Position numbers and translations under genes: made by a program. Under the pieces are notes generated by a model that saw only the letters and a list, made by a program, of their open reading frames with translations, was not told the origin of the DNA and did no database searches. A stretch of DNA of 64,000 bases, taken from Eledone cirrhosa. Taxonomy: Eukaryota. Shown one piece after another: positions 23,851 to 37,647 of the stretch (within the stretch, counting starts at the first letter, position 1; each line of letters opens with the position of its first letter). The stretch spans positions 39,494,001-39,558,000 of the forward strand of contig OZ024746.1 in NCBI GenBank assembly GCA_964016885.1. Reading direction: 5' to 3'.

Positions 23851-23880
<30 letters not shown>

Positions 23881-23890
<10 letters not shown>

Positions 23891-26800
23891 AATATAGACA
23901 TAGAATATTCGAAAATATTCTGTATGTTTATAATAAACATTTTGAAGACCTAATCGCTATAGAATAGAATACGTCACGTATTACAATTAGATTCTCGATA
24001 AAAGCAAGGGAAGTAATCTACGCGTTTCATTCTTATTAGAAATCTTCAGGACTACATATCCAGTGCTTTTATCGAGAATGACACAGCTAGAGACTTATAG
24101 AATACTTAGCTGTGTACATGAACTGGTTTGAAAGAGCGGTTGCCGGTCCGGCAGAAATTAGAAATTGGAATAAATGCTCTGAAATAGCGATATATATGTG
24201 AATATAGACATAGAATATTCGAAAATATTCTGTATGTTTATAATAAACATTTTGAAGACCTAATCGCTATAGAATAGAATACGTCACGTATTACAATTAG
24301 ATTCTCGATAAAAGCAAGGGAAGTAATCTACGCGTTTCATTCTTATTAGAAATCTTCAGGACTACATATCCAGTGCTTTTATCGAGAATGACACAGCTAG
24401 AGACTTATAGAATACTTAGCTGTGTACATGAACTGGTTTGAAAGAGCGGTTGCCGGTCCGGCAGAAATTAGAAATTGGAATAAATGCTCTGAAATAGCGA
24501 TATATATGTGAATATAGACATAGAATATTCGAAAATATTCTGTATGTTTATAATAAACATTTTGAAGACCTAATCGCTATAGAATAGAATACGTCACGTA
24601 TTACAATTAGATTCTCGATAAAAGCAAGGGAAGTAATCTACGCGTTTCATTCTTATTAGAAATCTTCAGGACTACATATCCAGTGCTTTTATCGAGAATG
24701 ACACAGCTAGAGACTTATAGAATACTTAGCTGTGTACATGAACTGGTTTGAAAGAGCGGTTGCCGGTCCGGCAGAAATTAGAAATTGGAATAAATGCTCT
24801 GAAATAGCGATATATATGTGAATATAGACATAGAATATTCGAAAATATTCTGTATGTTTATAATAAACATTTTGAAGACCTAATCGCTATAGAATAGAAT
24901 ACGTCACGTATTACAATTAGATTCTCGATAAAAGCAAGGGAAGTAATCTACGCGTTTCATTCTTATTAGAAATCTTCAGGACTACATATCCAGTGCTTTT
25001 ATCGAGAATGACACAGCTAGAGACTTATAGAATACTTAGCTGTGTACATGAACTGGTTTGAAAGAGCGGTTGCCGGTCCGGCAGAAATTAGAAATTGGAA
25101 TAAATGCTCTGAAATAGCGATATATATGTGAATATAGACATAGAATATTCGAAAATATTCTGTATGTTTATAATAAACATTTTGAAGACCTAATCGCTAT
25201 AGAATAGAATACGTCACGTATTACAATTAGATTCTCGATAAAAGCAAGGGAAGTAATCTACGCGTTTCATTCTTATTAGAAATCTTCAGGACTACATATC
25301 CAGTGCTTTTATCGAGAATGACACAGCTAGAGACTTATAGAATACTTAGCTGTGTACATGAACTGGTTTGAAAGAGCGGTTGCCGGTCCGGCAGAAATTA
25401 GAAATTGGAATAAATGCTCTGAAATAGCGATATATATGTGAATATAGACATAGAATATTCGAAAATATTCTGTATGTTTATAATAAACATTTTGAAGACC
25501 TAATCGCTATAGAATAGAATACGTCACGTATTACAATTAGATTCTCGATAAAAGCAAGGGAAGTAATCTACGCGTTTCATTCTTATTAGAAATCTTCAGG
25601 ACTACATATCCAGTGCTTTTATCGAGAATGACACAGCTAGAGACTTATAGAATACTTAGCTGTGTACATGAACTGGTTTGAAAGAGCGGTTGCCGGTCCG
25701 GCAGAAATTAGAAATTGGAATAAATGCTCTGAAATAGCGATATATATGTGAATATAGACATAGAATATTCGAAAATATTCTGTATGTTTATAATAAACAT
25801 TTTGAAGACCTAATCGCTATAGAATAGAATACGTCACGTATTACAATTAGATTCTCGATAAAAGCAAGGGAAGTAATCTACGCGTTTCATTCTTATTAGA
25901 AATCTTCAGGACTACATATCCAGTACTTTTATCGAGAATGACACAGCTAGAGACTTATAGAATACTTAGCTGTGTACATGAACTGGTTTGAAAGAGCGGT
26001 TGCCGGTCCGGCAGAAATTAGAAATTGGAATAAATGCTCTGAAATAGCGATATATATGTGAATATAGACATAGAATATTCGAAAATATTCTGTATGTTTA
26101 TAATAAACATTTTGAAGACCTAATCGCTATAGAATAGAATACGTCACGTATTACAATTAGATTCTCGATAAAAGCAAGGGAAGTAATCTACGCGTTTCAT
26201 TCTTATTAGAAATCTTCAGGACTACATATCCAGTGCTTTTATCGAGAATGACACAGCTAGAGACTTATAGAATACTTAGCTGTGTACATGAACTGGTTTG
26301 AAAGAGCGGTTGCCGGTCCGGCAGAAATTAGAAATTGGAATAAATGCTCTGAAATAGCGATATATATGTGAATATAGACATAGAATATTCGAAAATATTC
26401 TGTATGTTTATAATAAACATTTTGAAGACCTAATCGCTATAGAATAGAATACGTCACGTATTACAATTAGATTCTCGATAAAAGCAAGGGAAGTAATCTA
26501 CGCGTTTCATTCTTATTAGAAATCTTCAGGACTACATATCCAGTGCTTTTATCGAGAATGACACAGCTAGAGACTTATAGAATACTTAGCTGTGTACATG
26601 AACTGGTTTGAAAGAGCGGTTGCCGGTCCGGCAGAAATTAGAAATTGGAATAAATGCTCTGAAATAGCGATATATATGTGAATATAGACATAGAATATTC
26701 GAAAATATTCTGTATGTTTATAATAAACATTTTGAAGACCTAATCGCTATAGAATAGAATACGTCACGTATTACAATTAGATTCTCGATAAAAGCAAGGG

Positions 26801-29137
26801 AAGTAATCTACGCGTTTCATTCTTATTAGAAATCTTCAGGACTACATATCCAGTGCTTTAATCGAGAATGACACAGCTAGAGACTTATAGAATACTTAGC
26901 TGTGTACATGAACTGGTTTGAAAGAGCGGTTGCCGGTCCGGCAGAAATTAGAAATTGGAATAAATGCTCTGAAATAGCGATATATATGTGAATATAGACA
27001 TAGAATATTCGAAAATATTCTGTATGTTTATAATAAACATTTTGAAGACCTAATCGCTATAGAATAGAATACGTCACGTATTACAATTAGATTCTCGATA
27101 AAAGCAAGGGAAGTAATCTACGCGTTTCATTCTTATTAGAAATCTTCAGGACTACATATCCAGTGCTTTTATCGAGAATGACACAGCTAGAGACTTATAG
27201 AATACTTAGCTGTGTACATGAACTTCGAATATTCTATGTCTATATTCACATATATATCGCTATTTCAGAGCATTTATTCCAATTTCTAATTTCTGCCGGA
27301 CCGGCAACCGCTCTTTCAAACCAGTTCATGTACACAGCTAAGTATTCTATAAGTCTCTAGCTGTGTCATTCTCGATAAAAGCACTGGATATGTAGTCCTG
27401 AAGATTTCTAATAAGAATGAAACGCGTAGATTACTTCCCTTGCTTTTATCGAGAATCTAATTGTAATACGTGACGTATTCTATTCTATAGCGATTAGGTC
27501 TTCAAAATGTTTATTATAAACATACAGAATATTTTCGAATATTCTATGTCTATATTCACATATATATCGCTATTTCAGAGCATTTATTCCAATTTCTAAT
27601 TTCTGCCGGACCGGCAACCGCTCTTTCAAACCAGTTCATGTACACAGCTAAGTATTCTATAAGTCTCTAGCTGTGTCATTCTCGATAAAAGCACTGGATA
27701 TGTAGTCCTGAAAATTTCTAATAAGAATGAAACGCGTAGATTACTTCCCTTGCTTTTATCGAGAATCTAATTGTAATACGTGACGTATTCTATTCTATAG
27801 CGATTAGGTCTTCAAAATGTTTATTATAAACATACAGAATATTTTCGAATATTCTATGTCTATATTCACATATATATCGCTATTTCAGAGCATTTATTCC
27901 AATTTCTAATTTCTGCCGGACCGGCAACCGCTCTTTCAAACCAGTTCATGTACACAGCTAAGTATTCTATAAGTCTCTAGCTGTGTCATTCTCGATAAAA
28001 GCACTGGATATGTAGTCCTGAAGATTTCTAATAAGAATGAAACGCGTAGATTACTTCCCTTGCTTTTATCGAGAATCTAATTGTAATACGTGACGTATTC
28101 TATTCTATAGCGATTAGGTCTTCAAAATGTTTATTATAAACATACAGAATATTTTCGAATATTCTATGTCTATATTCACATATATATCGCTATTTCAGAG
28201 CATTTATTCCAATTTCTAATTTCTGCCGGACCGGCAACCGCTCTTTCAAACCAGTTCATGTACACAGCTAAGTATTCTATAAGTCTCTAGCTGTGTCATT
28301 CTCGATAAAAGCACTGGATATGTAGTCCTGAAGATTTCTAATAAGAATGAAACGCGTAGATTACTTCCCTTGCTTTTATCGAGAATCTAATTGTAATACG
28401 TGACGTATTCTATTCTATAGCGATTAGGTCTTCAAAATGTTTATTATAAACATACAGAATATTTTCGAATATTCTATGTCTATATTCACATATATATCGC
28501 TATTTCAGAGCATTTATTCCAATTTCTAATTTCTGCCGGACCGGCAACCGCTCTTTCAAACCAGTTCATGTACACAGCTAAGTATTCTATAAGTCTCTAG
28601 CTGTGTCATTCTCGATAAAAGCACTGGATATGTAGTCCTGAAGATTTCTAATAAGAATGAAACGCGTAGATTACTTCCCTTGCTTTTATCGAGAATCTAA
28701 TTGTAATACGTGACGTATTCTATTCTATAGCGATTAGGTCTTCAAAATGTTTATTATAAACATACAGAATATTTTCGAATATTCTATGTCTATATTCACA
28801 TATATATCGCTATTTCAGAGCATTTATTCCAATTTCTAATTTCTGCCGGACCGGCAACCGCTCTTTCAAACCAGTTCATGTACACAGCTAAGTATTCTAT
28901 AAGTCTCTAGCTGTGTCATTCTCGATAAAAGCACTGGATATGTAGTCCTGAAGATTTCTAATAAGAATGAAACGCGTAGATTACTTCCCTTGCTTTTATC
29001 GAGAATCTAATTGTAATACGTGACGTATTCTATTCTATAGCGATTAGGTCTTCAAAATGTTTATTATAAACATACAGAATATTTTCGAATATTCTATGTC
29101 TATATTCACATATATATCGCTATTTCAGAGCATTTAT

Positions 29138-29142
<5 letters not shown>
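23881..29142. repeat. 310-bp tandem array, about 10.8 units then about 6.2 inverted units (switch near 27224), one hammerhead per unit, flanked by (TA)n; retrozyme/PLE-pLTR-like
   Basis: Unit starts at 23881, 24191 ... 26981 (period 310); only three substitutions noticed (near 25925, 26860, 27713). Confidence 0.95.
24013..24055 (-). ncRNA. Minimal type I hammerhead of the 310-bp unit (11 copies on -, 6 on + starting 27392-27434)
   Basis: GUAGUC-CUGAAGA-uUUCUaauaAGAAu-GAAAC-GC-GUA-GAUUAC; palindromic ACGCGU stem III; enclosed by a 16-bp outer helix 23991-24006/24064-24079. Confidence 0.8.
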
Positions 29143-29211
<69 letters not shown>

Positions 29212-30051
29212 GTGGGAGGGGTCTGGACAAATTTTCATAAGTATTTTAAACAAAATTACAGGATATATGACACGAGACACGATAAATGAGATTTTATGAT
29301 ATTCATGTTACTGTGATATAGTCTGATCAAAGTAAACCTTTTATATGATTAAAGACATTCTTGCCGTAATCATCCCATAAGTATTTCTATTGAAGAGAAC
29401 CCAGCACCACATGTACCTTTTAAAGATTGTTTTGTTTTATTTGAGAGAGATTTTGTCTATCGTGGTGAGACCAGTAATGAATTAACATAATATAAGAATC
29501 AAAACCGAGTCGCCGACTCAACTCAAATGTTTTATTCCCGATGCCCAGTCTGAACCTTCGAGATTTAAAACCCAGGAACTAAGCCTTAGTTTAGCAAACT
29601 TTGATCAAAAGCTTTCTAGCCATGACCCGTCCCTTTTTTCTCCTCACAGTGCTCACATGACATCATTATCTAAAGTGGTTTTTTTTTTCTAATTTGAGGG
29701 GGTGTTTGGCTGTTGTTTTCTTCTGGTGAATAACCAGGAAGGAAATAGCAGTATCTATGACTCATTATATTTTTCAGTGCCCGTGAGCCGTATAGGAAGA
29801 GGAAAGGAAGTCACCCTTAAGCCAAAGACTTATCTTGAATTCTTACAACAGAATGAACTTCACAAAAGACGCCCAAGAATGAAATAGTGGTGTTAAACCA
29901 GGTAATGGATTAAATCTTTCACCTAAAAATTAAGAACGCAAACAGCTGGAACAAATAACTCAAGACATCTCGTCCGACTATGTAATAATATCACCAACCC
30001 ACCGCTATGGACTGTATCGACTCCAAAATTTAAATTCAGCGAGATTTTAAA

Positions 30052-30480
30052 CTCGGTTTTCGTGCCAACCCTTACGTATCGTCATGAATCTTGGGTAATG
30101 ACCGAAAGAATACGATCACGAATATAAGCGGACGAAATGGGATTCCTCTAAAGGGTCTTTGGAGTAACGTTACTCGATAAAGTGCGTAGCTCGGAGATCA
30201 GAGAGTCACTCCAGGTAGAGCCGCAACTTCTTTCAATTGAGAGATCACAGCTCAAATACTATGGACATGTGGTTAGAATGTCTCAGGAAAGAATCACTGG
30301 ATAGATTTTACGGGCAAAAACCAACCCGCAAGAGACCCAGAGGTAGACCCCGAACAAGATGGTTGGATAAAAACCATGGCTGGTCACGCTTGGGGCTCCA
30401 GTCGGATCAGTCGGGTACGGTTGCTTCTGACAGGACCCGCTGAAAGAAGTGTTTGAGGACTCTGCACGCCACAACCCCCC
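30052..30480 (+). mobile_element. RTE-clade LINE 3' fragment
   Basis: Same family as 8337-8790; KPTRKRPRGRPRTRWLD C-terminal motif. Confidence 0.85.
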
Positions 30481-31782: not shown

Positions 31783-32680
31783 CGAGGTGGGTCAGAAAAG
31801 TTCCAGGACTGATGTCACAAAAGATTTATTTCAAACCCAAACTTCACACTAAGAGTTTTCTCCATCAAAGTAATTCCCCTGGAGTCTAATGCACTTTTTT
31901 TTATCCTTTTCTGCCACGCTTGCATGCACTCCTGGAAGGATTCTTCCGGGATCCTCCGCAGTTCCGTCGTCACGGCCTTTTTGATGTCGTCCACGTCTTC
32001 AAAACGGGTCCCCTCCGGATCGTACTCGAAGATCCATAACTCATCACCGGTGATGACTGTCCCTAGCAAGTCTGGTTCGGTTTCAAGACGTTCGATGATG
32101 TCCTGGCACACTTGCATGCGTCGACCCTTCTGGTCATCGTTCAGCAGTTTTGGCACCATCTTCGCGCAGACTTTCTGCATGTCCAAATCTTCAGTGAGAA
32201 TCTTCCAGACGCTGTACCGATTCATTCCCAGCTCATTTGCTATCAGTCGAACAGTCAGCCGACGATCGCTACGCACGATCTGCCTGACGCGCTCAACGTT
32301 GACCTCAGTCCTGGTTGTTGAGGGCCTTCCGCTCCTGGGGTCATCTTCCACGTCCTCACGCCCTTCTTTAAACCTCTTGCACCACTCAAAAACACGTGAG
32401 CGTGACATCGTCTCATCTCCATACACTTGCTGCAGCAATCCCAGTGCTTCCGACGGAGTTTTCAAGTTTGTTCGTTGCTCTGTGCTCATTGCTTGACGAC
32501 CTGAAACAGAGAACATGTATATGAAATTATGAAGAAAAAAGTTTGATCGCTGAAGAGAGCTAAGATTACAGTTACATACTACAGGGGGATTTCTTTGAGG
32601 GAGAAAACTCTTAGTGTGAAGTTTGGGTTTGAAATAAATCTTTTGTGACATCAGTCCTGGAACTTTTCTGACCCACCTCC
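31783..32680 (-). mobile_element. Internally deleted mariner element (898 bp, about 100-bp TIRs, TA target duplication)
   Basis: TIR CGAGGTGGGTCAGAAAAGTTCCAGGACTGATGTCAC.. at both ends; TA at 31781-31782 and 32681-32682. Confidence 0.92.
31815..32489 (-). pseudogene. Mariner transposase with in-frame deletion of most of the catalytic domain
   Basis: HTH region (MSRSRVFEW.KRFKEGREDVEDDPRSGRP), AKMVPKLL linker, ITGDE first catalytic Asp, then YDPE jumps straight to GTRFEDVDDIK. Confidence 0.85.
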
Positions 32681-32777
32681 TATATACATACATACATACA
32701 TATATATATATATATAGAGAGAGAGAGAAATTGGGTGAGTAGAAGAGTAAGTGTACTATGTATCATTATTTCTAACC

Positions 32778-34621: not shown

Positions 34622-35789
34622 TTGTGTGTGTGAGTGTGTGTAAACAACTATCCTGTTAATAAAATAACCGACGGAAAATTATAATAATAAAAACTGTTTT
34701 TATTGGCAGCATGACCAAAGTATAACAATATGTACCATTTGATACTATTTGATCCAATATTCTTTATAATTATTCTTACTAACACTGTCGCATCACCAAA
34801 TATTAAATGTGTGTGTTCATTTGTAGAACATTTCTGACATTAACGTTCGTTAATTCCCAAGTAAACGAACAGTTAGATGTCGTGCTATGTTTTTTATTCT
34901 TGTCAGAATATAAAGAAAACATTACTAGTGAGTGATGGCAACAGTCTTAACCAACTAGATTCAGTTATTACTACAACCCTAAATTCAGTGGTTTCATCGC
35001 ATCACTAACTATTACAACATAAGTTTTACAACTTACAATTTCAAGATGTCAACTAAATGAGAATAATAATTAGATTTATCGAGTAATTGAATATTAAATT
35101 AACCAACAAATTAGACAGATGTGAGTTTAACATGATACGAGCAAAGGAAAAGTAATTTGTACACATTAACACATATGTTGTATGTGTTTACATATATATG
35201 GTGTGGTCTTGTAGATATATTTAACATGTTTTCGTATGACACAAATAGAAATACATTATGTAAGTGTGCGTGTTCGTATGCGAGAGTCTGTATCTGAATG
35301 TGTGTATATTTATGTGAGAGTGTCTGTGAGAGCCAGGAACCGATGAAAGTTCAAACTACTGTTTCATGTTAATACAATTTAAACTCAGTCTGCGTATCAA
35401 TTAGGATGAATATTTCCTGTAACATGTATTGAAGTAACACCAAAAACTTTATCATCCTGTGGTGCGGGTAGGGCACGTGTAATACAACAGAACTTACTCC
35501 TACTCGTGGTATCGGGTACAGATGGATATCGTCAATATAAAGACTGAGGTGAAATGACTAAATCAGAAATCAAAAATGGGTCACAGTCTTGATTTGCCTG
35601 GGGCGTATAACAAGTCTATGACACTCGCACATTCATAAGGTTGTGTGAACTGTCAAGTCCTATAATACATTGTATCCTAGGGGCATCACTGAAGATTGTG
35701 ATTTAATGTTAATTAATGTTAATAGATCCGAGGGTTAGTCAACAAGGCAGAGCCTACTTACCTTCAGTCTGTATATATATATATATATA

Positions 35790-36363
35790 TAAATGTATAT
35801 ATAGTGTATTTTGCAATACACTATATGCTTAATTAAAAGCATTTCGAAGACCTTACAGGGGAGATAAAGCTGACTGAGCTCTGTTTCGCACTTTTTGGTG
35901 CTTATCAAAACTAACTACTCCACCTGTTTGCTGAAAATTAAGTAAGGTCTTCGAAATGTTTTTAATTAAGCATACAGTGTATTGCAAAATCCACTATATA
36001 CACATTCATATATATATATCGCTATTTCAGAGCACCAATTCTAATTTTCAATTTCTGCTTGACCGGCAACCGCTCTGTATAATCAATTCCTGATTATTAC
36101 TAGAATTCTATAAGAATCAAACATTCATGATTCTCAGCAAACAGGTGGAGTAGTTAGCTTTGATAAGCACCAAAAAGTGCGAAACAGAGCTCTGTCAGCT
36201 TTATCTCCCTGTTTGCTGAAAATTAAAGTAAGTGAGACTGTCACTACTCTAAAACAATAGCGTAAGGTCTTCAAAATGCTTTTAATTAAGTATACAGTGT
36301 ATTGCAAAATACACTATATATACATTCATATATATATCGCTATTTCAGAGCACCAATTCTAAT
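35790..36363. mobile_element. Sister family of the 310-bp unit: 318-bp period, inverted left arm, two variant HHRs (35868-35912 on -, 36156-36200 on +)
   Basis: Shares CGCTATTTCAGAGCA, GACCGGCAACCGCTCT and AGGTCTTCAAAATG blocks; AGCU-UUGAUAA-GCACcaaaaaGUGC-GAAACAGAGCUCUGUC-AGCU. Confidence 0.8.
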
Positions 36364-36499
36364 TATATATATATATATATAGTGAAACGCACTTTTTATG
36401 ATCATTTTGGAACGGACACTTCCAGATGACAATAACAAACAGATAACATTAAGTAAAAGATTAATCTTGATTACAGCAACCATTTAATAACTTTATATT

Positions 36500-37647
36500 A
36501 TATATAATAAATGCTATCACCACATGAGCAGTATCACTCCTCAGATATGGAGCAGGGACGATCACATAAACAATAAATAGCTAAACAGCTTACACCGAAA
36601 GACAAGATTGCTATTGACTAGATATGGAGTATTTCATCCATATATGTACAAAGAAAAAGAGGAGGAAGATGGCAGCAGACAGTATTAGAACCGAAGAAAA
36701 CAACATGGCATGGTACATAAAAATTCCACGGAACCGCTATTGTCAGAAGGTCAGGGTTGTGCAAAATTGAAGGTTTCAATAATAATAGACGGTACAGGAA
36801 TTTGAAAATGGATTAAACTAAAAATAGGTGGACAGGAAAAAGAACGCGTAAGTAATATCATAGAGATGTTGAATATAGGACAGACTAAAAAAAAAAAATG
36901 CTGGCTATGGGTGGCTAAAAGTGATTTAAAACAGGAAACAGAAACTTTAATATGTGCTGCCTAAGAACAAGCACTAAGAACTGATTACATCAAACATAGA
37001 GTAGACCACACAGCAGAAAGCGATAAATGCAGAATTTGTGTCAAGAATGGAGAAACTGAATAGCTCAAAAAAATATAAAAGGCGCATTTGACAATGTAGT
37101 AAGGATAATCCATTGGGCACTTTGCAGCAAATATAGACTTGATAGAGAAGAAAGTGGTACGAACATAAACCTGGGGGCGTTGTCGAAAATGATTAATGCC
37201 TATGGGATTTTATGATCCGGTGTGACCATGAAATTGAGAATAGGAAATACAATATTGTGATAATTGAGAAAGAAAACAATGTTGGATAATAGATACAGCA
37301 TGTCCAACTGATAAGGTGTACGATAAAGAAGGAGTTAAAATCGATAGATACGGGGATAGATAGAAGGTTAAACAGTCACTACTGTTTAACCTTCTAACTA
37401 TCTGAAAAACGTGATAGTAATACCCATAATAATTGGAACCTTATGAAATAGTAAGTAAAGATCTTGAAAAGCATATTAAATGAATAGGGGCTGGAATATG
37501 GATGGAGCATTTACAGAAAACAGCACTGCCTGGAACAGTTCGAATACTCCGGAGGGGGCTTAAAAAATAAGGGGTGTTACTTCAATTCACTGGCAATGAA
37601 CAGCTGACACCGTAAATCATCAAGGGAAAACACATAATAATAATAAT
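36500..37647 (+). mobile_element. R4/Dong-like non-LTR retrotransposon 3' fragment (restriction-like endonuclease type), ending in (TAA)n
   Basis: INAI..AV.LLRYGAG, SDLKQETETLICAA.EQALRT, DKCRIC, KWYEHKP, WDF.I.CDHEIE, IPIIIG, LQKTAL.GT.RILRR, with stops and frameshifts. Confidence 0.85.

Follow-up and report, generated by a model that had tools for sequence, protein, structure and literature searches.

Positions 35790-36363 of the window (the whole 64,000-nt stretch of Eledone cirrhosa contig OZ024746.1 analysed here) hold a repeat related to the 310-nt units of a tandem array at lower coordinates. A first-pass annotation described it as a diverged sister unit that keeps the whole RNA fold by covariation, including the exchange of a UUCG for a GCAA tetraloop, which raises the question of what, outside the ribozyme itself, is maintained as RNA structure in these elements. 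A 318-nt unit is indeed present, but the locus is not a single unit; it comprises 1.3 units plus an inverted arm within (TA)n. The order is (TA)10, inverted arm, 3′ part of a unit, full 318-nt unit, 27-nt extension and (TA)9, with the parts located as follows:

35772..35791, no strand: (TA)10 target-site run, left
35792..35934, minus strand: inverted, 5′-truncated S1 arm that ends at the "short" 3′ end (inverted matches to 36134-36326)
35923..36019, plus strand: 3′ part of a preceding unit that has lost 35 nt (matches 36208-36337 in direct orientation)
36020..36337, plus strand: full 318-nt S1 retrozyme unit
36338..36364, plus strand: 27-nt extension (Penelope-like tail) that reaches the "long" insertion end; (TA)9 comes next, at 36364-36381

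The best genomic matches to the full unit are 96-98% identical, and the period of the sister family is mostly 319. One full and one partial inverted hammerhead motif are found at the locus, tandems being present at other S loci. The inverted arm carries one internal deletion, or two deletions on another count; its strand switch falls within 12 bp of outer-helix homology. The sister locus represents an insertion, by now slightly decayed, from one subfamily within a large family of tandem repeats that bear hammerheads. The 310-nt (U) array exhibits the same anatomy, with two opposed arms in (TA)n:

23880..27224, minus strand: left arm, 10.8 units, short end in (TA)n
27224..29143, plus strand: right arm, 6.2 units, long end in (TA)n
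27392-27434, plus strand: an example of the U-unit hammerhead, with C3-G8
27368-27383 / 27441-27456: outer helix of the 310-nt unit
27526-27545, plus strand: hairpin P7 with a TTCG loop

The two units are members of a single family of type I hammerhead non-LTR retrozymes. The unit is short, non-coding and tandemly repeated with one hammerhead each, and it occurs at many dispersed loci devoid of LTR architecture. A shared 25-nt motif has 17,642 exact matches in the 3.0-Gb genome (control, 0), and the long end is joined exactly to (TA)n in 1,015 cases of the U type and 769 of the S type. By changing the queries nine subfamilies were sampled (S1-S5, T1-T3 and U), from which 163 distinct full units were extracted; since these were drawn from best-match lists, mainly on contig C1, they do not constitute a random sample. 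Forty-two of the 163, picked to cover the nine subfamilies plus one single variant, were aligned, and over these 42 rows the S1 and U units are 59% identical overall. By region, identity is 85% in the first 59 columns, 47% over the ribozyme with its outer helix, and 71% for the 3′ domain. Each of the two window units folds far better than its shuffles (z of -6.25 and -5.64).

The two least diverged groups are U (mean divergence 0.023) and S1-S3 (0.057). In a tree built without hairpin P7 they lie at opposite ends, with U on a long branch and weakly placed among the T subfamilies. A full unit could be read at 116 of the 122 U loci. Of the 107 multi-unit loci, 64 had only identical units among those seen, the haplotypes being locus-specific, and a single haplotype ran throughout 13 of the 30 U loci with both arms. 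An old S2 array (L159) still has about ten units, each of them diverged by about 10%, which shows that long arrays endure while their units decay one by one.

The hammerhead motifs were read by hand, because the Rfam models matched nothing in the window at gathering score. In the sister unit the following elements are recognized:

36156..36200, plus strand: type I hammerhead motif, predicted cleavage after C36196
36156-59/36197-200: stem I
36160-66: core U3-U-G-A-U-A8-A, followed by stem II (GCAC/GTGC)
36181-83: GAA
36184-95: palindromic stem III

The motif conforms to C/U3-U-G-A-N-G/A8-A, G-A-A-A and U-H with stems I, II and III in type I order, and its stems and 3-8 pair covary. The stem III palindromes reported earlier are in place, ACAGAGCTCTGT at 36184-36195 in the sister and ACGCGT in the 310-nt unit. 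A point missed by the first-pass annotation is the core pair 3-8, which is C3-G8 in U and U3-A8 in S1: among the 163 distinct units U-A occurs in 76 and C-G in 63, five are unpaired and 19 are unmatched, and the family tree carries three switches between the two states. The U3-A8 variant is described as a natural compensated core pair, active in vitro and found in motifs of Schistosoma Penelope-like elements (PLEs), and the U10.1-U11.1 mismatch and palindromic stem III are likewise described in hammerheads (PMC3088659, PMC4209133). The compensated pair is the same as in those accounts, as far as they were consulted, whereas here both states alternate within one family. Cleavage of the present family cannot be assumed, because only one of nine Xenopus retrozyme dimers is reported to have cleaved in the consulted part of a recent preprint (bioRxiv 2026.07.22.740005).

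The arms of these insertions end at two fixed places approximately 35 nt apart, one in the AT tract that follows P7 and the other beyond the extension. Counted with a strand-specific anchor, 40 of 42 arm ends at 29 S loci (whole-unit match) abut (TA)n, and 10 of the 13 two-armed loci possess one long and one short end. The corresponding figures are 40/46 and 12/16 for 29 S5 loci, and 22/32 and 3/4 for 29 older T loci. At L178 (plus strand, near 1923), L160 and L173/L180, copies have an internal segment inverted inside a helix, which points to template switching at hairpin structures.

An inverted 5′ arm, a tail at one end and an AT-rich target are what would be expected of mobilization by Penelope. 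Penelope-like insertions are described as partial tandems in which one arm is inverted and 5′-truncated and one end bears a tail of 30-40 nt, the targets being AT-rich or (TA)n (PMC8557442). The anatomy of the present family is similar, as far as that account goes, though its units are without a reverse transcriptase (RT) or GIY-YIG open reading frame. Purified Penelope protein reportedly cuts both strands of AT-rich DNA and initiates from two positions within the RNA, at a stem-loop, the tail lying between these two start sites, and initiation in vitro is independent of target homology and ribozyme cleavage (PMC11167929). In the consulted part of that work the anole Penelope starts at a position lacking homology to the target, while the short end observed here coincides with an internal AT tract resembling the target.

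The genome contains elements with RT plus GIY-YIG, their frames reaching 1,096 codons. A Penelope element with the same 3′ domain was not found among 72 loci searched with a covariance model or 98 searched with nhmmer, a small sample of the 10,597 GIY-YIG candidates. Applied to the window and the 72 loci, the 3′-domain model matched only retrozyme copies nested near PLEs. Several candidates for an autonomous partner were rejected. At L155/L224 (1410-1590) a retrozyme 3′ half is joined to an RT/GIY-YIG PLE on the opposite strand; because 19 other copies of this PLE lack the retrozyme piece, the junction at L155 is likely a template switch or a nested insertion. L148/L154 has a retrozyme 3′ piece inside another repeat, and L116 is a decayed fragment. 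Separately, the Penelope-type family represented by L302, L303, L306, L311 and L313 carries, 3′ of the GIY-YIG frame, a type I hammerhead motif of its own, and its copies terminate at either of two 3′ ends, one lying directly in (TA)n; its sequence does not resemble the present retrozyme.

The helices that bear on the question of structure lie, in the sister unit, as follows, all on the plus strand:

36134-36145 with 36208-36219: outer helix P1, which extends hammerhead stem I and shows the strongest covariation
36056..36068: small conserved hairpin PB (TGC..GCA), with a G·U pair in 7/9 subfamilies
36227..36248: hairpin P5, in the same register in 8/9 subfamilies and in a different one in the 310-nt unit
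36256..36344: conserved 3′ domain, with closing helix P8, hairpins P6 and P7 and an internal AT tract
36256-62 with 36338-44: P8
36276-93: P6
36296-36315: P7, loop GCAA

Every helix string quoted in the first-pass annotation was found where it had been placed. Its observation that the outer helices of the two units differ in sequence and are nevertheless paired is borne out: seven of 11 aligned pairs have changed on both sides and none is broken (chance ~5e-7). Over the 42 rows the ribozyme and P1 have two-sided change in 18 of 23 pairs, with 95.8% of cells paired. The other helices have it in nine of 46, a figure reached by 118 of 500 shuffles, and several of the nine arise from misregistered P5 columns.

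Because alignment cells are related by descent, changes were mapped on the tree, with the tip branches, which record decay after insertion, serving as the control for the inner branches. The test excluded P2, P5 and the 5′ hairpin, whose register varies from subfamily to subfamily. Changes that keep and break pairing, respectively, number 31/3 on inner branches against 10/15 on tips for the hammerhead (p 4e-5), 21/4 against 13/14 for P1 (p 0.009), and 5/0 against 8/13 for P6 plus P7 (p 0.04). When P8, P0, PB, P6 and P7 are pooled, the figures are 6/2 and 30/36 (p 0.15, not significant). Double compensations on inner branches amount to six in P1 (null mean 0.32), three of them on one branch, and to three in P6 plus P7 (null 0.35, p 0.001), two of them on one branch. 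The P1 compensations in S4 and S5 are events outside the pair of units from which the fold was first proposed. The three in P6 and P7 are those of the U-S comparison itself, in pairs that had been used to define the helices; for the 3′ hairpins the seven further subfamilies add only that pairing persists. These small helices are held in sequence as well, because columns in P8, P0, PB, P6 and P7 accumulate 0.20 changes on inner branches versus 0.97 elsewhere, with tip rates alike (1.15 versus 0.91).

The claim that the whole fold is kept by covariation goes too far: beyond P1 there are just three compensated events, and three helices shift register or vanish in U. The 5′ hairpin is reduced to three pairs in U and takes another register in the T subfamilies, and P2 and P5 adopt other registers in U. 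The broader proposal, of selection on the structure of the sense RNA beyond the core, is supported by P1 covariation in subfamilies not seen originally, by 3′ hairpins that are paired in 9/9 subfamilies and by helix columns evolving approximately five times more slowly on inner branches. Published retrozyme folds are predictions from single sequences; here the helices are tested on a tree, and the family separates an outer helix that is free in sequence from a sequence-fixed 3′ domain at the two insertion ends.

Within this 3′ domain, RNAalifold adds P8, which closes P6 and P7 into one unit; its terminal pair is disrupted in S3. The AT tract inside the domain contains the "short" insertion end. 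The P6 helix ATGCTT..AAGTAT is present at 36276-36293, the T at 36291 being private to the sister copy where the family has C. P7 also reads as first described, AGTGTATT-GCAA-AATACACT at 36296-36315 and AGAATATT-TTCG-AATATTCT at 27526-27545. Between S1 and U, two-sided changes affect 1/6 and 2/8 pairs of the 3′ hairpins (chance 0.03 and 0.002). The direct swap of UUCG for GCAA does not hold. The P7 loop is GCAA in S1-S3, ACCA in S4, GCCA in S5, AUCA in T1-T3 and UUCG in U, with a CUCG variant that forms whole arrays; the loops AUCA, ACCA and GCCA thus stand between the two ends of the tree, and by parsimony AUCA to UUCG and GCCA to GCAA are separate steps. The special stability of UUCG requires closure by C-G. 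In U the loop is closed by U-A and gains no energy bonus, and under the one parameter set counted (Turner 2004) its loop term, 5.4 kcal/mol, is worse than that of AUCA (5.1) or GCAA (4.1). The P7 loop is not restricted to UNCG or GNRA across the family.

The pairs other than Watson-Crick bear on the sense of the structure. Subfamily-majority states at 35 pairs in nine subfamilies (315 cells) comprise 291 Watson-Crick pairs, 19 G·U, no A·C and five others, while private deviations include 18 A·C. The 19 G·U and zero A·C are more readily explained by RNA of the ribozyme sense than by a DNA palindrome or by template switching on its own. Folding energy was of no help as a strand test, the antisense being more stable in 7/8 representatives.

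Among young U copies, substitutions in the catalytic core make up 0/38 inherited and 5/63 private changes (p 0.15). In the non-ribozyme helices, inherited changes keep or break pairing 6/3 and private ones 6/16 (p 0.056), two of the three inherited breaks being in a helix peculiar to U. One inherited change, A>G at unit position 289, would lengthen P7 by a C-G pair. Changes of A>G account for 10/38 inherited versus 4/63 private ones (p 0.007), and paired A>G for 8/46 versus 0/27 for paired C>T (p 0.02), though both yield G·U. Two further comparisons in these copies were not significant, namely A>G against T>C (10 vs 6, p 0.12) and paired against unpaired A (p 0.17). The excess of A>G among inherited changes hints at A-to-I editing, as judged from the substitutions.

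We consider it probable that this is a retrozyme family in which the outer helix and the 3′ hairpins stay paired because only RNAs able to fold are cut, circularized and copied back by a Penelope-type RT. By analogy with known retrozymes, tandem transcripts would self-cleave through a dimeric type I hammerhead with a palindromic stem III, and the cleaved units would close into circles of 310-320 nt. P1 presumably holds the cut ends together for cleavage and circularization, which would leave it free in sequence but not in pairing. To judge from the in vitro work on Penelope, the enzyme would then nick AT-rich DNA on both strands and start at two internal RNA sites. In this family those sites would fall within the P8-P6-P7 domain and immediately beyond it; the domain is a candidate recognition site, conserved in both sequence and pairing as a protein-binding site would be. 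Selection would have acted on the replicating master lineages and not on the sister genomic copy. It thereby supplies a specific candidate, 90 nt long, for the signal that Penelope recognizes. That P8-P6-P7 is the element on the retrozyme circle at which the Penelope RT binds and initiates, and that A-to-I editing of paired RNA, fixed by reverse transcription, feeds G·U states into helix evolution, is a more tentative extension that we think could be correct but would not presume.

An alternative, which we regard as unlikely, is that only the ribozyme and P1 are selected as structure, the 3′ region being a primary-sequence or DNA-level signal (an AT-rich quasi-palindrome, or a site for priming or for an endonuclease) in which the three compensated pairs are incidental. 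The near invariance of the 3′ and 5′ helices, whose two-sided changes shuffles so often match, accords with this, as do the freedom of the P7 loop sequence and the want of any new compensated P6 or P7 pair among the seven further subfamilies. Yet three doubles exceed their null expectation (0.35, p 0.001), all five inner changes keep pairing (one via G·U), and the inherited A>G at 289 would extend P7. The idea that an UUCG or GNRA hairpin is itself required, with the multi-hairpin fold kept pair for pair as first proposed, appears very improbable: the two least diverged groups do carry UUCG and GCAA, and GCAA cuts the loop term by ~1 kcal/mol, but five of nine subfamilies have ACCA, GCCA or AUCA, CUCG arrays exist, and neither the U-A closure nor the three helices that shift or vanish in U fits such a requirement.

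We give little credence, too, to template switching during reverse transcription or DNA replication as a complete account, in which one arm of a helix is copied onto the other and no RNA structure is selected. Such a mechanism has been described for RNA hairpins (PMC8794818, in the part consulted), strand switches at the outer helix occur in the family, the sister locus included, and the concentration of three of the six P1 doubles on one branch would suit it. It predicts perfect Watson-Crick arms without regard to strand, however, at odds with the G·U and A·C counts of the subfamily states, and it can neither generate the C3-G8/U3-A8 switches nor keep a catalytic core. Template switching may still be the source of some of the mutations.

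The class of element is known and has already been linked to Penelope elements. Expression and circles have been shown for metazoan non-LTR retrozymes (Cervera and de la Peña 2020, PMC7229834), which, in the text consulted, resemble the present family in that the tandem units of ~300 nt are low in G+C, lack an open reading frame and bear one type I hammerhead each, the circle is predicted to be extensively self-paired, dispersed loci run into the thousands and Penelope-like elements are proposed as helpers. The words "cephalopod," "covariation," "inverted" and "microsatellite" do not appear in that consulted text. By comparison with it, the present family, as seen in its genomic copies, contributes a nine-subfamily tree test of the helices and insertions into (TA)n whose arms are opposed and whose ends are fixed at two places. 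The Xenopus retrozymes (Li, Clavereau and Pollet, bioRxiv 10.64898/2026.07.22.740005) likewise include monomers, dimers and multimers of one family and co-occur with PLEs; according to the consulted part of the preprint, 24 of 57 families are linked to known elements, mostly PLE pLTRs, whereas no homologous pLTR was present among the loci examined here. Its main text, as consulted, names no mollusc among 35 genomes. Recently active Penelope-like families are described in an octopus in the consulted part of PMC13282606. A partial literature search located no tree-based covariation test outside the ribozyme for an animal retrozyme, and supplements may list such families.

Three runs labelled as other organisms (X4, X5 and X6) each yielded one 340-nt contig, consisting of one unit plus overlap, which matches window positions 27568-28187 with just three to four differences from the 310-nt unit; these may represent relatives, diet, contamination or transfer. 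Elsewhere in the window, a broken Tc1/mariner-type transposon lies between microsatellite runs at 31783-32680 (frame 31815-32762, minus strand) and matches Pfam HTH_32 and HTH_48 (Mos1), and frame-broken pieces at 29900-30480 and 36800-37600 resemble, by eye, the 3′ ends of non-LTR retrotransposons.
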